Source of the DNA: Priapulus caudatus
Taxonomy: Eukaryota
Reading direction: 5' to 3'
DNA: 14,340 nt
Assembly: GCF_000485595.1 (NCBI RefSeq)
Contig: NW_014577163.1
Span: 313,156 to 327,495, forward strand
Part shown: positions 1,910 through 14,176 of the stretch, in pieces
How positions within the stretch are numbered: the first letter of the stretch is position 1
Layout of the letters: the number at the start of each line of letters is the position of its first letter
The notes under the pieces: generated by a model
Told to the model about the DNA's origin: nothing
The model's database searches: none
What the model saw: only the letters and a program-made list of their open reading frames with translations
Position numbers and translations under genes: made by a program

Positions 1910-2048
1910 GCATTTTGATCTTCCGGAGGAGGAGACCCAGAAGAGCCGGCTGTTCAGTGTCGCAGATTTTGTCGGCGATGCCTGCAAAGTGATCGCTTCA
2001 CGCATCCGCGGTTCCGTCATCAGCATTCCGTTCGACGACTTTCACAAG
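1910..2048 (+). CDS. MVP: Major vault protein exon (…[46 protein letters not shown])
   Basis: Acceptor ccccgcAG at 1908-1909 and donor GTGAGA at 2049. The translation aligns to human MVP …[48 protein letters not shown] (alignment recalled from memory). The ORF upstream of 1910 loses all similarity, which marks the exon boundary. The exon enters in phase 2. Confidence 0.85.
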
Positions 2049-2433
2049 GTGAGAGACGAGTGTGTGTATGAAACAGCATCGCCCATCAGCATGTCGTAAT
2101 CACGCACAAACGTTGAATGACATTCGTGGCGGTCAACGTGCGTGCATGTAAGGATGAGCTTGTTAAGACCTGTTTTGCTTAGTATTCTTAAAGCGTTGGC
2201 CACCGGCTGGATGTGTGTGTGCATGTGCATGTGAGCCACTGTCCTTAGCTACTATACTTCTTTCATTCGTGTTCCTTCTTTATCTTCTTTAAGTCTTTGT
2301 GGAATTCAAATTTGTAATGACAATTCTCAAACCTAAAATGCAACGTCATTTTACTGCATAATAGTAATTTTTCGTTTAACGTGAACGTCACGTGTCATCT
2401 GCATTAACTCTCACTTGCGCCATCTTTTGGCAG

Positions 2434-2645
2434 AATTCGGCGAAGATCATCCGCGTAGCGGTGTTCGGCATGGATGCTGAGATGAATGTGCGCAAGCACC
2501 TGTGTTTTGAGCAGAACTCCCTGTTCATCACAAGTGTAGACATCCAATCTGTGCAGCCCCTCGACCAGTGTATACGCGATTCACTCATGAAGTCTGAGCA
2601 GCTAGCGATAGAAATCACCACCAGCTCGCAGGAGGCAGCAGCCAG
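2434..2645 (+). CDS. MVP: Major vault protein exon ([12 protein letters not shown]…[37 protein letters not shown])
   Basis: Acceptor ttttggcAG at 2432-2433 joins in frame to the previous exon (phase 0). Donor GTCAGG at 2646. It aligns to human NSARIIRTAVFG…[37 protein letters not shown]. The six-frame ORF runs on into the intron, losing similarity and turning low-complexity. Confidence 0.85.
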
Positions 2646-3003
2646 GTCAGGAGCGACAACACGTGCTCACCTCGTGATTTGGCACGCTGTCCATCTGCTC
2701 ACTTTCTTCTACGTCAGTTCCGACCATACCCTCGCTGGTTTGCCTGTTCACTCATTTGCTCATTCACTCATTCGCTCCCTCGCTCGTCTGCATTTCACTA
2801 ATTTATTCGTATCCTTCCTTATTTGTTTAATCACTCGTTGATTAGTCTGCTCGATGTTTTGTAGTCTTACACATTTGCTAATTTGTTTGTTTTCTCCCTT
2901 ACTTTATTGTAAGGATTTAAGGAATGTAATTCAGCATGACTGCTCATGTTGAATTATTGAGATATAAGAGATGTGATAATGAAGAGGGTTTACCTCATTG
3001 CAG

Positions 3004-3112
3004 GCATGAGGCACAGCGTCTAGAGCAGCAAGCAAAGGGCAAGCTCGAGAGACAGAAGATCATGGACGAGGCAGAGGCAGAGAAGTCGAGGCGAAACCTG
3101 CTGGAACTACAG
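3004..3112 (+). CDS. MVP: Major vault protein exon ((R)[36 protein letters not shown])
   Basis: Acceptor cattgcAG at 3002-3003. The split codon ag|g gives R, matching human K at that position. Donor GTGAGC at 3113. It aligns to human [37 protein letters not shown]. Confidence 0.85.
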
Positions 3113-3410
3113 GTGAGCTCACTGCTTGTATTCCCTCCTACGTTTCTGATGTCCCATCTGTACAGACTTGTCACTCTGTAAACCCAACAAATTGGCTCAA
3201 TATCTGCTGATTCCCTGTGGATTCGAACAAGTGGGGTCCAAAGAGAGAAAGATACACTGGGTGTAACACTGAGAAGTGTCAGTGTAACTCAATCTATGAG
3301 TGATGTCTCGAGGGTTGTCAGTCTGTTACTCCTGTATTGTAATCTCATGAAATCTCGTCCAATAATTGCTGCGTATGTGTGTGACATCCCTGTACTTTTA
3401 CCTCTCATAG

Positions 3411-3530
3411 GCAGTCAGTGCAGCAATTGAGAGAACCGGCCAGGCGCAGGGTCGTGCAGAAGCTGAGAAGATTGGGGAAGCTGCAGTACAGCAGGCGAGA
3501 CTGAAGGCTGAAGCCATATCAATAGAGGCC
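3411..3530 (+). CDS. MVP: Major vault protein exon (AVSAAIERTGQAQGRAEAEKIGEAAVQQARLKAEAISIEA), cap-helix coiled coil
   Basis: Acceptor ctcatAG at 3409-3410 and consensus donor GTAAGT at 3531. It is 120 nt in phase 0 and aligns to human [47 protein letters not shown]. Confidence 0.8.
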
Positions 3531-3738
3531 GTAAGTAAACTCACTAGTGTACACCTGCGATGTTCTTAATGCCTTGCGTTAATGTAATAATGTATCAGTG
3601 TATATCTATTATAGCCAGCTTGCATTTCTCTTTTCAAATAATTGTGCGGAACGTAACTGGGTTCGCAAGGTTAAATGGGTACACTCTGCCGGTCGTACAA
3701 ACTCGTGTTTTTTTCTGGTGTTTAAACATGCACTGTAG

Positions 3739-3864
3739 ACATCAGAGCTGCAGCGTCTACAGAACGCCAGACAAGCTGAGGTCCATTATGTTCGTGAGCA
3801 GAACGCTCTTGAGGTGGAGAAGAGCCGCATTCATAGCAACATCAAAGTGGAGGAGTTTAAATAG
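3739..3864 (+). CDS. MVP: Major vault protein last recognisable exon (TSELQRLQNARQAEVHYVREQNALEVEKSRIHSNIKVEEFK*), in-frame TAG at 3862-3864
   Basis: Acceptor cactgtAG at 3737-3738. It aligns to human [39 protein letters not shown]. The stop comes directly after the VEEFK/VKKFK position, and no strong donor precedes it. Confidence 0.7.
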   Translation, partial: TSELQRLQNARQAEVHYVREQNALEVEKSRIHSNIKVEEFK

Positions 3865-6861: not shown

Positions 6862-6940
<79 letters not shown>

Positions 6941-7052
6941 TCTCTCTCTCTCTCTTCTCTCTCTTCTCTCTCTTCTCTCTCTCTCTCTCTCATCTCTCTA
7001 TCTCGCTCTTTCTCTCTCTCTCATCTCTCTATCTCGCTCTTTCTCTCTCTAG
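6846..7052. repeat. (CT)n microsatellite, over 80 units with interruptions
   Basis: The sequence is ctctctct… throughout. The SLSLSL and RERERE ORFs are its translations. Confidence 0.95.
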
Positions 7053-7254
7053 CATCCGTCGGGGGTGCGGATGTTTCACTATGCATGGCACTGCTCCCTT
7101 CTCATTTTCGCTCGTTCTCTCGCTTTCTCTCGCGCTCTCTCCGCTTTACCCTCGTTTCCTTCTCCATGTCTCTCATTCTAGCTCTCTTGCTCTGTTCTGT
7201 CCTATCTCCCACCTTCAGTCCCCACTCCTTTCTGTTCCTTTTGCTCTCACGACT

Positions 7255-7255
7255 T

Positions 7256-7307
<52 letters not shown>

Positions 7308-7320
7308 TCTCTCTCTCTTT
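7255..7320. repeat. (CT)n microsatellite, second block
   Basis: Runs of ctctctct… read directly from the sequence. Confidence 0.95.
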
Positions 7321-8842: not shown

Positions 8843-8900
8843 CAGGAGTAGATAATAGGGAATTATTATTAATAGGGAATTCCCTATTATCTACTCCTGA
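8843..8900. mobile_element. 58-bp mini-hairpin (MITE-like) carrying the same termini as the 11246-12015 foldback element
   Basis: tcaggagtagataataggg-aattattattaataggg-aattccctattatctactcctga. It sits inside (TA)n. An extra truncated terminus agactcctga lies at 8821-8830. Confidence 0.7.
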
Positions 8901-8914
8901 TGTATATATATATA

Positions 8915-9112
8915 TGTGTGCGTGTGCGCGTGCGCGTGCGCGTGTGCGCGTGTGTGTGCGTGTTTGCGGGTGTGTATGTGTTTGTGTTTGTGTGCGTGTG
9001 CGTGTGCGTGCGTGCGTGCGTGCGTGTGTGTGTGTGTGTGTGTGTGTGCGTGCGTGTGTGTGTGTGTGTGTGTGCGCTCACTGTGTGCGCGTGCTCGTGC
9101 CGCGTGCGTGTG
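8915..9112. repeat. (GT)n/(GTGC)n/(GCGT)n compound microsatellite
   Basis: Runs of tgtgcgtgtgcgcgtg… Four overlapping ORFs (CVCVCV, THTHTH) are its translations. Confidence 0.95.
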
Positions 9113-10050: not shown

Positions 10051-10196
10051 GATTATGATATGAGCATCTTGACCACTGATCTCTATAATATAATCGATTA
10101 TATTATATTATATTATTATTATATTATTATATTATTATATTATTATATTATATTAATCGATTATATTAATATAATCTCGATTATATTATAGAGATC
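10051..10196. repeat. Inverted repeat (arms ~35 bp, cactgatctctataatataatcgattatatta) around a (TATTA)n core
   Basis: The reverse complement of 10160-10200 (cactgatctctataatataatcgagattatatta) matches 10072-10105. The aagagct motifs lie outside the arms at both ends. Confidence 0.8.
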
Positions 10197-10220
10197 AGTG
10201 ATCTTGACAGCTCTTTGACC

Positions 10221-10309: not shown

Positions 10310-10416
10310 CACACCTGCCCTAGACTGGTACTCGCTCCCACCTCGATTACTCGACGGTGTAGCCATCGAGTAACTAAGCCGAGAGGTGGGAGCGAGTACC
10401 AGTCTACACCTGCCCT
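10310..10416. mobile_element. 83-bp palindromic MITE-like insertion (10322-10404) flanked by an 11-bp direct duplication ACACCTGCCCT
   Basis: acacctgccct|agactggtactcgctcccacctcg-attactcgacggtgtagccatcgagtaactaagc-cgagaggtgggagcgagtaccagtct|acacctgccct. The outer stem is 25 bp with a nested 11-bp inner stem (ttactcgacgg/ccatcgagtaa). The direct repeats sit at 10310-10320 and 10405-10415. Confidence 0.6.
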
Positions 10417-10480
10417 GGCACACCTGGGCGGTTACATTCTTCTGTATTGAAAACCAGTAGCGGCGTGACGGCGTCGATGC

Positions 10481-10501: not shown

Positions 10502-10553
10502 ATGGAGGATGTTTCTACAGTTGTTGTCGTGTTACTGGCGTTGTGTCATACTG
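10502..10553 (+). CDS. Putative signal-peptide exon (MEDVSTVVVVLLALCHT+g), phase 1, proposed exon 1 of the Ly6/uPAR gene
   Basis: ATG in good Kozak context, a hydrophobic core, and a consensus donor GTAAGA at 10554. It ends in phase 1, exactly what the 13215 acceptor needs; g+gt gives Gly, producing …CHTG|LAIRCYSC. The implied intron is 2.66 kb and contains the foldback element. Confidence 0.35.
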
Positions 10554-10720
10554 GTAAGAACCGAGATCGTTAATTATTCGCGCGTGCATTTATACGGTGA
10601 CAGTGTTTAATAGCGTACCTTTTCGGTACATTATTCACACATAAATTGGACACAACTGTTGCAGGTCACACAAAAACAGAAGTCGGGGACGTGTATGACT
10701 CAACTTGTAGTCGGTTCAAG

Positions 10721-10879
10721 GATAGAGAACATGGGTCCCAATAAAACCAATGTCATTTACATCAATATAAATTATTAAATATAATATTAATTATTATATC
10801 AATATAATAGGTTAGGGTTATGGTTAGGCCTTAGGGTTAGGCACATTGGTTTTATTGGGACCCATGTACGTTCTCTATC
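10721..10879. repeat. Foldback: 32-36-bp inverted arms (gatagagaacatgggtcccaataaaaccaatg) with a loop carrying ggttagggttatggttaggccttagggttagg
   Basis: The reverse complement of 10843-10879 equals the left arm with a 4-bp insertion (gtac). The loop is AT-rich followed by TTAGGG-type repeats ending …ggcac, as in the 7913-8112 element. Confidence 0.85.
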
Positions 10880-11078
10880 ATTTGGGCCTGTAGTCTACGT
10901 CTACGTCTACATCTGACACAGGCACTTGGGACAGAGTCAGTAAAAACTGAAAATAATATGAACGCACATTCACAAATACTACCGTACCTCTCAATTACAG
11001 TTCCACTGTTGTGTCACTGTATATCAACTTTCCTTCATAAAAACAAACACCGAACGCTCCCGCACTCGCCGCTGCGAG

Positions 11079-11215
11079 TGTGCTGTGTCGCCATTAGTTC
11101 TAGTACTATAGCCCGCTTACATTAATTGCCACTGCCAGCGGCAACTGTACGCGGGCTATAGTACTAGAGCTATGTCGCCATTAGCTCTAGTACTATAGCC
11201 CGCGTACAGTTGCCG
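11079..11215. repeat. S-shaped repeat: three copies of ctagtactatagcccgc in + / - / + orientation
   Basis: gtcgccattagttctagtactatagcccgc…gcgggctatagtactagagctatgtcgccattagctctagtactatagcccgcgtacagttgccgc. The middle copy is inverted relative to both outer copies. cagcggcaactgtacgcggg / cccgcgtacagttgccgc are also inverted. Confidence 0.8.
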
Positions 11216-11245
11216 CTTTGAGACCAAATTGTATATATATATATA

Positions 11246-12015
11246 TCAGGAGTAGATAATAGGGAAGGAGTGTGACATCAATAAACAAGGGAAATTCGTC
11301 ATTTACTAGCCTTAGAATACCTACGATTTACTACGCGTAACGCAACCAACTTGAGCTCAAATCGTACACAGTACATTTGCCTAGCATCGTGCTAAATCGT
11401 TTCCTCGTATACACCCGCAATCCGGAGATAGAGACTAAAACGTACGACACGATTATCCATTCTGTTGCCAGCACACAGAATCCAATAGACGCAAAACTTG
11501 AAACAAAAGGCAGCTACTAACGCGCTATTGCTAACTCGGCGAGGCATGTGGCTCGCTGGGAGATTAGGCATCAACGCAACACTCGGCGAGATAACCTTTG
11601 ACCCGGTACACAGCTACATACCGGCATACCGACATACAGCTGGCATGCCCCCACGCACGCACGCCAACCGCAATCAGCAGCAGATCGGGCTCAAATCTCC
11701 CAGCGAGCCACATTGCCCGCCGAGTTAGCAATAGCGCGTTAGTAGCTGCCTTTTGTTTCAAGTTTTGCGCCTATTGGATTCTGTGTGCTGGCAACAGAAT
11801 GGATAATCGTGTCATACGTTTTAGTCTCTCTATCTCCGGATTGCGGGTGTATACGAGGAAACGATTTAGCACGATGCTAGGCGAATGTACTGTGTACGAT
11901 TTGCGCTCAAGTTGGTTGAGTTACGCGTAGTAAATCGTAGGTATTCTAAGGCTAGTAAATGACGAATTTCCCTTGTTTATTGAAGTCACACTCCTTCCCT
12001 ATTATCTACTCCTGA
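11246..12015. mobile_element. 770-bp foldback / long-TIR element: terminal inverted repeats of ~320 bp (11246-11565 and 11694-12015) around a 128-bp unique core, inserted in (TA)n
   Basis: Termini are tcaggagtagataatagggaaggagtgtgac … gtcacactccttccctattatctactcctga. The arms are roughly 93-95% identical. The mirror-image ORFs at 11392-11574(-) and 11598-11930(+) translate to near-identical peptides (SNLPASH.ARRVSNSALVAAFCFKFC.YWILCAGNRMDNRV) only because they read the two arms. No transposase ORF is present, so it is non-autonomous. Confidence 0.8.
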
Positions 12016-12030
12016 TATATATATATACAA

Positions 12031-12069
12031 TCAAGAGTAGATAATAGAGTCTCTATAATCTACTCTTGA
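12031..12069. mobile_element. 39-bp mini-hairpin variant of the same TIR terminus (tcaagagtagataatagag / ctctataatctactcttga), flanked by TACAA on both sides
   Basis: It lies 16 bp 3' of the big element inside the same (TA)n tract. Direct tacaa occurs at 12026-12030 and 12070-12074. Confidence 0.65.
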
Positions 12070-12075
12070 TACAAT

Positions 12076-12146
12076 GTATATATATATATATGTATATTAT
12101 ATATATACATTGTATATATATATATATATATATACATATATATACA
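12076..12146. repeat. (TA)n microsatellite with interruptions
   Basis: Runs of (ta)n interrupted by tgtata and ttatat. Confidence 0.95.
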
Positions 12147-12342
12147 CTAGGGGTCAGTGATACATATGGTATTTTGTTCTAAAGTAAAACAATGTGGCTA
12201 TCTTTGTCAGGCTGCAAAGATATATGATCCCAGTTATTACCTAGGTAATGCTATTTATTGCATTCATAAGGTTGCATTCATTCTGGCTATTTCATTTTTT
12301 CACTGGGTGTGGGCCAGGGTGCATCTTGGTTGATAAGAGAGG

Positions 12343-12418
12343 TGCTTTGTTGTTGTTGTTGTTTTTTGTGGCTAATGCTGCTGCTGCTTCTGCTGCTGTT
12401 GCTGCTGTTGCTGCTGCA
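12343..12418. repeat. (TTG)n followed by (GCT)n trinucleotide repeats
   Basis: ttgttgttgttgttg…gctgctgctgcttctgctgctgttgctgctgttgctgctg. Overlapping ORFs give poly-L and poly-A. No splice or gene context supports coding. Confidence 0.85.
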
Positions 12419-13214
12419 GTACCGAAGTTATTGTCGTAGATTACAGGGAGGAAAATCTTTTGCAGTTTCATGGATTTCTGATTTTTTTAGCTGTTAGTAC
12501 TGATTTGGATAAATTCAAAGAGAAAATTTAGGTGGGGTTAGAATACCTTACGTGATTTAAAGACCAGACTTAGCCCGATGTCTCATAAACTATAGTCATG
12601 GGAATTGGTTGGAATTCCATCATCAATCATCGGTTGCACGCAACCGATCGATGATTGAAGATAATCAGTTGAATGTTATTGATCGCGGCTACCAGATGTT
12701 GAAATATATTATATATCATATAATACAGTATTTTTTTATAATACAATATTCGAAAAGCTATATGACAGTATTATGCATGCTTATGTTTGGTGCAGGTTAT
12801 ATTTACTGTCTTCATGCTGTATAGTAACCAAACTAAACACAATAATAAAATTAAGTGTCATTTCATCAGTGTTTGCAAATTTTATTAAAAAATGTGAAAA
12901 AAACTTTTTTGATTGATTATTTATTTTCATAATCAAGCGCTTATACGTATAGTCGGTTGCTGCAAACGACTGACTTTCGATTATAATCGATCATCGGGAC
13001 ATCACTATCATAAAGTCGGATCACATTGTTAGAGAGCAACTTGTTTAGTTTAGTAAAACTATGGAGTATTAACTAAGTCGAGTGTATTCCAGATTGTGAC
13101 TGTAGGTATTTTGTACACCATTTGTCGTTGCAATTTTTTGTTCAATTATGATTTCAGATTTTTTTGTCGGTCATTCTCATCCCTGATCCTGAGGTCATGA
13201 TTGCTTGTTGACAG

Positions 13215-13361
13215 GTCTAGCCATAAGATGCTACTCATGTACAGTTCCTCCATATCCAGGAGCGGATCTTCATACAAATAAACGCAACATCTGTCCAGAC
13301 ATTAGTTGTCCGGGACCAAAGGAGGAACAAGTATGTGTGAAGATTACTGATAACAGAGGAA
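13215..13361 (+). CDS. Ly6/uPAR (three-finger) domain exon: (G)LAIRCYSCTVPPYPGADLHTNKRNICPDISCPGPKEEQVCVKITDNRG
   Basis: Acceptor ttgttgacAG at 13213-13214 and consensus donor GTAAGT at 13362. It opens with the LU-domain signature L-x-C-Y-S-C and has 5 cysteines with family-typical spacing. It enters and leaves in phase 1. Confidence 0.6.
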
Positions 13362-13374
13362 GTAAGTATCACAG

Positions 13375-13411
13375 TAATATTAATAATAATAACAATAATA
13401 ATAATAATAAT
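13375..13411. repeat. (AAT)n microsatellite in the Ly6 intron
   Basis: aataataataacaataataataataataat. Confidence 0.95.
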
Positions 13412-13464
13412 TTAGAATGGATATTCTGGTGTAAACTGTATGTATTTCCCTCCAGAGTACTCAG

Positions 13465-13468
<4 letters not shown>

Positions 13469-13495
<27 letters not shown>
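13469..13495. repeat. (TA)13 microsatellite
   Basis: Read directly from the sequence. Confidence 0.95.
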
Positions 13496-13640
13496 TGTGT
13501 GTCGGAGATTATTGTCACAGAGACAATTAGGAATCACCATCATGGGAGAGAAAAACCACCCAGTCTGAAATAGGCTTGAATAATATATTTACGGTGACCT
13601 GTTGTGCAGACGTGTTTCATAGCAGTTTTGCACATGAATA

Positions 13641-13662
13641 AGAGAGAGAGAGAGAGAGAGAG
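13641..13662. repeat. (GA)11 microsatellite
   Basis: Read directly from the sequence. Confidence 0.95.
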
Positions 13663-13746
13663 CTAATTTTGTCTATTACGTATTTACCTTTGTCACTTTT
13701 TGTCATACTGGGTTTTGTCATGAAAGTATGTACACATTGTTTCTAG

Positions 13747-13830
13747 GCGAAGAGGTCATCGTAAGAGGGTGCCTTTGGGACCTCAGATCAAGTAACTGGG
13801 CTCCTCTGCTCCCTGGAGATGTATTTACAG
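13747..13830 (+). CDS. Ly6/uPAR domain exon: SEEVIVRGCLWDLRSSNWAPLLPGDVFT(G)
   Basis: Acceptor ttgtttctAG at 13745-13746 and donor GTATGT at 13831. It is phase-1 compatible with the neighbouring exons (a|gc gives Ser, g|ga gives Gly) and contributes one Cys (RGC). Confidence 0.55.
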
Positions 13831-13976
13831 GTATGTGACTTACTTATTTAACAGTGAAAATAAATCATGCTTAGGATATGCGCATTAAAACAGTTCTTTG
13901 TCTCCATGGAATCTTTATTAATTTATATATGTTTACAGCTGATTCAGTCCTCCAATCTTTAACATTATCTTCGCAG

Positions 13977-14176
13977 GATGCCGGAAACCAGCTGTCGATA
14001 AATACCTAACGCCTAATGACTACTATCTGAACGTGTACAAGCAACCACACGAATCCATAGACTTCTGCTTCTGCAATGACTGGATATGGTGCAATGGCGC
14101 ACCACAACTGGTGAAGTCGGCCATCCTGCCTGGTTTACTATTGGCTTTGTCGCTGTGGCATTTATTGTACGCATGA
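13977..14176 (+). CDS. Ly6/uPAR terminal exon: (G)CRKPAVDKYLTPNDYYLNVYKQPHESIDFCFCNDWIWCNGAPQLVKSAILPGLLLALSLWHLLYA*
   Basis: Acceptor tcttcgcAG at 13975-13976. It holds the family's C-terminal signature: a near-adjacent Cys pair FCFC, then x5, then C-N (CNDWIWCN). A small-residue omega region (NGA) follows, then a 17-residue hydrophobic tail, which is a typical GPI-anchor signal. TGA at 14174-14176. The mature domain has 10 Cys in total. Confidence 0.6.

Follow-up and report, generated by a model that had tools for sequence, protein, structure and literature searches.

The locus analysed here, positions 10502–14176 of a 14,340-nt stretch of the Priapulus caudatus genome (contig NW_014577163.1, positions 313,156–327,495 of the forward strand; the whole stretch is called the window below and all positions refer to it), raises the question of whether three closely spaced exons with the marks of a Ly6/uPAR domain form a complete gene together with a short signal-peptide exon that lies 2.7 kb upstream, across a foldback element. 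We conclude that the region is very probably a complete protein-coding gene, which specifies a Quiver-family (QVR) protein with one Ly6/uPAR (LU, three-finger) domain and a predicted glycosylphosphatidylinositol (GPI) anchor.

The four coding exons lie on the forward strand, all splice boundaries are canonical AG/GT, and the three introns (2661, 385 and 146 nt) are all in phase 1. Exon 1 (10502–10553, 52 nt) begins with the ATG and supplies the Met, the greater part of the signal peptide (MEDVSTVVVVLLALCHT) and, ahead of the donor CTG/GTAAGA, the opening base of the Gly18 codon. Exon 2 (13215–13361, 147 nt; acceptor TTGACAG, donor GTAAGT) completes the signal peptide and runs through the predicted cleavage region GLA/IR and loop 1 into loop 2, of which it encodes the first strand; it carries Cys23, Cys26, Cys44, Cys49 and Cys58 and its last residues are ...KITDNRG. 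Exon 3 (13747–13830, 84 nt; acceptor TTTCTAG, donor GTATGT) finishes loop 2 with its second strand and opens loop 3; it carries Cys75 and stops one codon short of Cys96 at a phase-1 intron. Exon 4 (13977–14176, 200 nt including the TGA stop; acceptor CTTCGCAG) encodes Cys96, the long loop 3, the CFC...CN motif (Cys125, Cys127, Cys133 and Asn134) and the GPI-attachment signal. Joined, the exons give 483 nt in one open frame and a 160-aa precursor, MEDVSTVVVVLLALCHTGLAIRCYSCTVPPYPGADLHTNKRNICPDISCPGPKEEQVCVKITDNRGSEEVIVRGCLWDLRSSNWAPLLPGDVFTGCRKPAVDKYLTPNDYYLNVYKQPHESIDFCFCNDWIWCNGAPQLVKSAILPGLLLALSLWHLLYA. These boundaries, intron phases and single frame bear out the four exons and their in-phase joining as proposed in a preliminary description of the locus; the precursor length of 146 aa given there was an arithmetic slip.

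Comparison with public records revealed that the 160-aa product is identical to RefSeq XP_014662136.1 (uncharacterized protein LOC106805155, Priapulus caudatus), with 100% identity at 100% coverage and no difference at all. Identity over all 160 residues implies the same four coding exons, the distant exon 1 included, so that the first exon which the preliminary description had placed 2.7 kb upstream, at 10502–10553, is also the one in the RefSeq model. A single-sequence search of approximately 5.8 billion proteins returned one match, this same record (itself 160 aa), and exact-sequence look-ups retrieved only the RefSeq/UniRef entry. The record already has a precomputed Pfam QVR domain and is named only “uncharacterized protein”; a literature search on Ly6 in Priapulus brought up no relevant work. 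The gene model is correct and already annotated in RefSeq, hence not new, and it belongs to a well-described family with no unusual mechanism implied. Its significance beyond annotation quality is slight, this being an ordinary gene: a reading from the sequence alone rebuilt all four exons of the gene, down to a first exon of 52 nt that lies 2.7 kb off across repeats, and arrived at the model of the NCBI pipeline.

Family membership was established with Pfam-A, where residues 21–134 match the complete QVR profile (PF17064, Quiver family u-PAR/Ly-6-like domain; profile positions 1–86 of 86) with an E-value of 7.4e-07 and 30.5 bits, above the curated cut-off of 27.3. The Pfam CD59 model stays below threshold (14.2 vs. 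33.9 bits), as does DUF753. With the QVR score over its cut-off and the product equal to a RefSeq protein, the match is far beyond chance. The mature part contains ten cysteines (residues 23, 26, 44, 49, 58, 75, 96, 125, 127 and 133), with one extra cysteine in the signal peptide, and their pattern ends in C125-F-C127-NDWIW-C133-N134, that is C-x-C-x5-C-N. Together with the hydrophobic signals at both ends, the QVR match and this cysteine pattern uphold the Ly6/uPAR three-finger identity first proposed, and the hidden Markov model (HMM) check suggested for it has now been passed. The count of ten cysteines and the C-terminal signature (residues 125–134) were likewise correct. Of the N-terminal signature, described as LxCYSC, the CYSC part is present and the literal Leu is not, the protein reading I-R-C-Y-S-C after G-L-A, and the domain, put at roughly 130 residues, is shorter, with the LU domain proper spanning about 114 aa (I21–N134). 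The likeness to the Pfam QVR family extends to the single ten-Cys LU domain, the CYxC start, the CxC...CN end, the signal peptide and the GPI-type tail.

A HMMER scan of 1.84 billion representatives gave 21 relatives, and a profile search retrieved QVR-domain proteins from Hymenoptera, Coleoptera, Hemiptera, a cockroach, a louse, trombidiform mites and an isopod, as well as from the nematomorph Gordionus, a rotifer (a fragment) and Priapulus itself (paralogue LOC106811024). Insect, mite and crustacean QVR proteins come closest, with 26–34% identity. Aligned homologues have a common layout—a short signal peptide, (L/I)xCYxC, CVKI, R.C, GCR, CFC....CN and a hydrophobic end—and in the alignment with 30 homologues Cys49, Cys58, Cys75 and Cys96 are invariant, with Cys23 and Cys26 nearly so. 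When 30 homologues were compared with the window by tblastn, matches fell on exons 2–4 only, and neither a second Ly6 gene nor a stray Ly6 exon was found in the 14-kb window. The Priapulus paralogue (LOC106811024; P0002) is 44% identical by BLASTP and 49% by phmmer, rising to 68% over exon 3. Its RefSeq model begins in the middle of the LU domain (MQKNLCPEQPCPGPE...) and lacks the signal peptide and the CYxC motif, probably through upstream exons missed in the model.

A single-sequence AlphaFold model proved unusable (predicted local distance difference test, pLDDT, 38.7) and was replaced by a run based on an alignment of 31 sequences, which reached a pLDDT of 79.5 and a predicted template modelling score (pTM) of 0.67. 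This model places beta-hairpins at residues 22–28, 58–75 and 95–97/122–127 and helices at both targeting signals (2–16 and 144–159); its low-confidence parts are loop 3, at residues ~100–120 (pLDDT ~56), and the linker 136–141. Against known structures, the values listed were 6.2 for TEX101, 6.1 for Lypd6b, 6.0 each for uPAR, GPIHBP1 and Lynx1, 5.9 for CD177, ~5 for TGF-beta/activin receptor ectodomains, ~5 for bungarotoxins and 4.3 for CD59. The Foldseek list likewise consists entirely of three-finger proteins, with Lynx1 best at a probability of 0.97. All of its E-values exceed 1e-3 (best 0.054), so that this support for the fold stands at the level of predicted structure and is not proof. 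A profile search of the PDB by sequence gave only a marginal three-finger toxin match, to beta-cardiotoxin (E-value 0.034). The three-finger fold is therefore supported, as a predicted one. Vertebrate Ly6/uPAR proteins and snake toxins (Lynx1, Lypd6b, CD59, PSCA, GPIHBP1, uPAR, TEX101 and alpha-neurotoxins) share only 10–20% identity with the Priapulus protein, whose domain is also longer (~114 vs. 60–90 residues), mainly through the long loop 3.

By length the precursor divides into a signal peptide of about 20 residues, the ten-Cys LU domain of about 114 and a C-terminal hydrophobic signal of about 26, and hydropathy analysis revealed only two hydrophobic stretches, at residues 3–19 and 142–158. 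The first has its core at residues 4–17, with Kyte-Doolittle values of up to 3.6. A cut after G18-L-A20 would satisfy the -3/-1 small-residue rule and leave I21-R-C-Y-S-C, the usual start of a mature Ly6 protein, so by rule-based assessment the N-terminus reads as a secretory signal peptide. At the other end, the putative GPI-anchor signal (14096–14173, forward strand) consists of N134-G135-A136, small residues and candidates for the omega, omega+1 and omega+2 positions, after which comes the spacer PQLVKSAI, and the remaining 16 residues up to the C-terminus form a hydrophobic tail (LPGLLLALSLWHLLYA); judged by the same kind of rules, it has the makings of a GPI-attachment signal. Hydropathy and residue inspection therefore find both ends of the secreted, GPI-anchored precursor topology originally suggested.

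It is nonetheless conceivable that the product is a soluble secreted three-finger protein, similar to SLURP proteins or toxins, or a type-I membrane protein with the C-terminal helix as its membrane anchor, and in either case not GPI-anchored. GPI addition is read here from rules alone, and the candidate omega residue N134 is at the same time the conserved Asn directly after the last cysteine, which leaves little linker. We nevertheless consider this unlikely: the hydrophobic tail reaches the very C-terminus, leaving no cytoplasmic residues, and it is preceded by the small residues N-G-A and an 8-residue spacer. Homologues have the same arrangement of CN[SGA]A..., spacer and hydrophobic end. 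Such a hydrophobic-tail arrangement is the standard GPI signal of Ly6 proteins (PMC6600238).

The assignment of exon 1 rests on the RefSeq model, the quality of the signal, the splice and start context, and the architecture of the family. An exhaustive scan for ATG...GT exons of phase 1 in the 13.2 kb upstream of position 13215 gave 279 candidates, among which 10502–10553 has the top-ranking hydrophobic core (3.75) and a donor (GTAAGA) that is among the best, in line with its earlier selection as the only fitting upstream signal exon. Its start lies in the context AAAG-ATG-G (A at -3, G at +4), with an in-frame stop 36 nt upstream, at 10466–10468. BLASTP furthermore pairs the exon-1 core VVLLALCH with the signal-peptide stretch VVVLALCH of an independent homologue, taken from a sequencing-run assembly, which may be taken as weak independent backing. 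Phase-1 candidates at ~8900–9055 were rejected as low-complexity artefacts, being open reading frames (ORFs) of dinucleotide repeats.

A closer start, with the same gene and LU domain, would make 12762–12795 (MTVLCMLMFGA, phase 1) the true first exon and 10502–10553 a chance ORF. This exon is among the phase-1 ATG...GT candidates of the scan, and the peptide it encodes is moderately hydrophobic (2.56). It lies just 420 nt upstream of exon 2 and so comes nearer to the intron 1 sizes of insect orthologues (123 and 419 nt). We regard it as quite improbable all the same. Its donor, CAG/GTTATA at 12795, has neither a purine at +3 nor a G at +5, unlike the GTAAGA at 10553, and its start context is poor (TAT-ATG-A vs. 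AAG-ATG-G at 10502). The signal peptide it would give is very short, at ~14 residues (MTVLCMLMFGAGLA before IR...), and this leader is shorter than that of every full-length homologue aligned. The NCBI model, moreover, starts at 10502 and not at 12762, and it is the peptide from 10502 that resembles the signal core of a homologue.

That the locus is a non-expressed or decaying copy (pseudogene) whose open frame is merely retained is scarcely credible: a very large, transposon-laden first intron that parts the start exon from the rest, and the absence of a transcript-derived copy of the protein from the collections searched, would suit such a copy, but all exons are open, six of six splice sites are canonical, the protein retains every one of its ten structural cysteines, the CN motif and the two targeting signals, the Pfam score is over threshold, and divergence from the Priapulus paralogue leaves every shared family motif in place.

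Several observations do weigh against the reading as a functional, GPI-anchored QVR protein. The RefSeq model is itself computational (“PREDICTED”), and a transcript-derived twin of the protein was not found in a collection of 15 billion proteins, where it forms a cluster of one. The n-region of the signal peptide is acidic (M-E-D), not basic, and the calls on signal cleavage and on the GPI signal are rule-based and do not come from dedicated predictors. No close Drosophila orthologue was among the search matches, a search aimed at the nearest Drosophila Ly6 paralogue not having been made; the functional analogy therefore holds at the level of the family only, and no experimentally studied counterpart can be named.

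At that level, a function may be outlined for the putatively GPI-anchored protein. The precursor would enter the endoplasmic reticulum, where its signal would be cut after Ala20. Five disulfides (23–58, 26–44, 49–75, 96–125 and 127–133) are expected by analogy with CD59 and the LU consensus (1–5, 2–3, 4–6, 7–8, 9–10). The C-terminal tail would then be swapped for a GPI anchor at about Asn134–Ala136, and the mature protein would sit on the outer leaflet of the plasma membrane. By analogy with the Ly6/QVR family it may serve there as a small, non-enzymatic binding subunit that acts in cis on other membrane proteins. Of the Drosophila members, Sleepless/Quiver modulates Shaker K+ channels and nicotinic receptors; Boudin and Crooked take part in septate-junction assembly. 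Drosophila Coiled is needed in septate-junction assembly as well (PMC3058042), and Belly roll modulates neuronal excitability (PMC10264074).

One feature sets the Priapulus protein apart from its arthropod relatives. Arthropod QVR proteins have their third cysteine six residues past the second, in a “PGC” motif (C-x2-C-x6-C), whereas in the Priapulus protein, its paralogue and the Gordionus homologue the “PGC” cysteine is missing and another stands 17 residues past Cys26 (Cys44, “ICPD”), so that the total stays at ten. The displaced cysteine lies in the C-x17-C region of residues 26–49 (13238–13309). If the LU-consensus pairing holds, the loop-1 disulfide would enclose ~17 residues compared with 6. 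It is possible, if on balance doubtful, that the displaced third cysteine and the proline-rich loop 1 (“TVPPYPG...CPDISCPGP”) mark a distinct and possibly ancestral QVR/Ly6 subtype of non-arthropod ecdysozoans; were this the case, it would mean another loop-1 binding surface and hence another membrane partner than in the arthropod clade. The public Gordionus model (204 aa; Gordionus sp. OX940784.2, region 2001–23891) itself appears to be chimeric. Its first exons, at 2001–2499, encode a good QVR N-terminal half. Its last exons, at a distance of 15–21 kb, overlap a LIM-domain gene and contain no CFC...CN motif. This model was used solely for its intron position, after ...KIIEKIEG.

The introns tie the gene to its insect orthologues. 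In Vespa velutina the 73-nt exon 1 closes in phase 1, splitting a Gly codon that lies four residues ahead of the first cysteine (“...IIKE/G ESLL CYRC”), and intron 1 of Priapulus has the same position and phase (“...LCHT/G LAIR CYSC”); the orthologue of the planthopper Nilaparvata also has a phase-1 intron within its signal peptide. Intron 2, which follows ...KITDNRG in phase 1, is common to the Vespa velutina (past ...KIIERKG, phase 1) and Nilaparvata orthologues. It splits codon 67 at the tip of loop 2, in the turn between the model strands 58–65 and 68–75. The third intron, which precedes Cys96, is shared with neither Nilaparvata nor Vespa, the two insect orthologues compared, and it also distinguishes the Priapulus gene from those of vertebrate Ly6/uPAR proteins and toxins. 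The archetypal LU gene (PMC6600238) has a signal exon of its own, phase-1 introns and one intron that interrupts the domain at the tip of loop 2, and the layout found here is this archetype plus one extra intron just before Cys96. The locus documents a Quiver-family Ly6 gene in a priapulid, with the signal-exon intron and the loop-2 intron shared by a priapulid and an insect.

Intron 1 (10554–13214, 2661 nt, phase 1) is far longer than the first introns of the insect orthologues and is rich in repeats, containing the foldback, several short hairpins, TA microsatellites and GTT/GCT runs; its length looks like repeat-driven inflation with no evident functional meaning. The foldback, a long inverted repeat of 768 bp (11247–12014), has arms of 319 nt (11247–11565) and 321 nt (11694–12014) around a loop of 128 nt (11566–11693), and 312 of 322 aligned positions are complementary (96.9%). 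Its presence in the intron had been claimed before and is upheld by this near-perfect palindrome, the termini of which recur elsewhere in the window: the terminal 16-mer CAGGAGTAGATAATAG occurs six times (0.18 expected), as three inverted pairs. One further pair forms a 57-bp mini-copy upstream of the gene (8843–8899), with two perfect terminal repeats face to face and TA-repeat flanks. The other is a degenerate mini-hairpin of 37 bp directly 3' of the foldback (12032–12068), where two inverted terminal motifs have one and two mismatches to the 16-mer; it is probably a remnant or an internally deleted copy.

Such mini-copies suggest an active or recently active family of foldback elements or miniature inverted-repeat transposable elements (MITEs) with internally deleted derivatives. 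The likeness to foldback and MITE-like elements lies in the long near-perfect inverted repeat, the short loop, the lack of a convincing ORF or coding capacity and the termini shared with two short copies in the window, and the pattern fits such a family of non-autonomous type. TA repeats border the foldback; as every copy has (TA)n on both sides, a target-site duplication of TA or longer would be indistinguishable from microsatellite. An Rfam scan of the whole window gave no family match, hence the foldback and the hairpins fit no curated RNA family in Rfam. Four more short hairpins lie upstream of exon 1 and in intron 1 (10071–10203, 10321–10406, 10729–10867 and 11095–11217). Some of their arms are perfect (24, 25 and 36 nt), their sequence is unrelated to the foldback, and they are possibly other MITE-like insertions.

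The window as a whole is eukaryotic genomic DNA of 32–50% GC in which microsatellites and short hairpin repeats are frequent. On the same strand as the Ly6 gene and upstream of it are 3' exons of a major vault protein (MVP) gene (2031–3861), which makes the Ly6 gene a separate downstream gene. Pfam MVP_shoulder matches 2425–2646 (E-value 5.6e-13), and tblastn with a human MVP C-terminus as query matched 2425–2646, 2999–3130, 3411–3554 and 3742–3861. A tandem repeat at 287–669 has nested periods of 76, 100 and 176 nt in ~2 copies with 93–95% identity and ends in (AATT)n at 631–694. Long microsatellites, with (CT)n of ~95 units plus a second block at 6862–7318, (TG/GC)n at 8915–9074 and, within intron 1, (GTT)n followed by (GCT)n at 12340–12420, yield spurious long ORFs.

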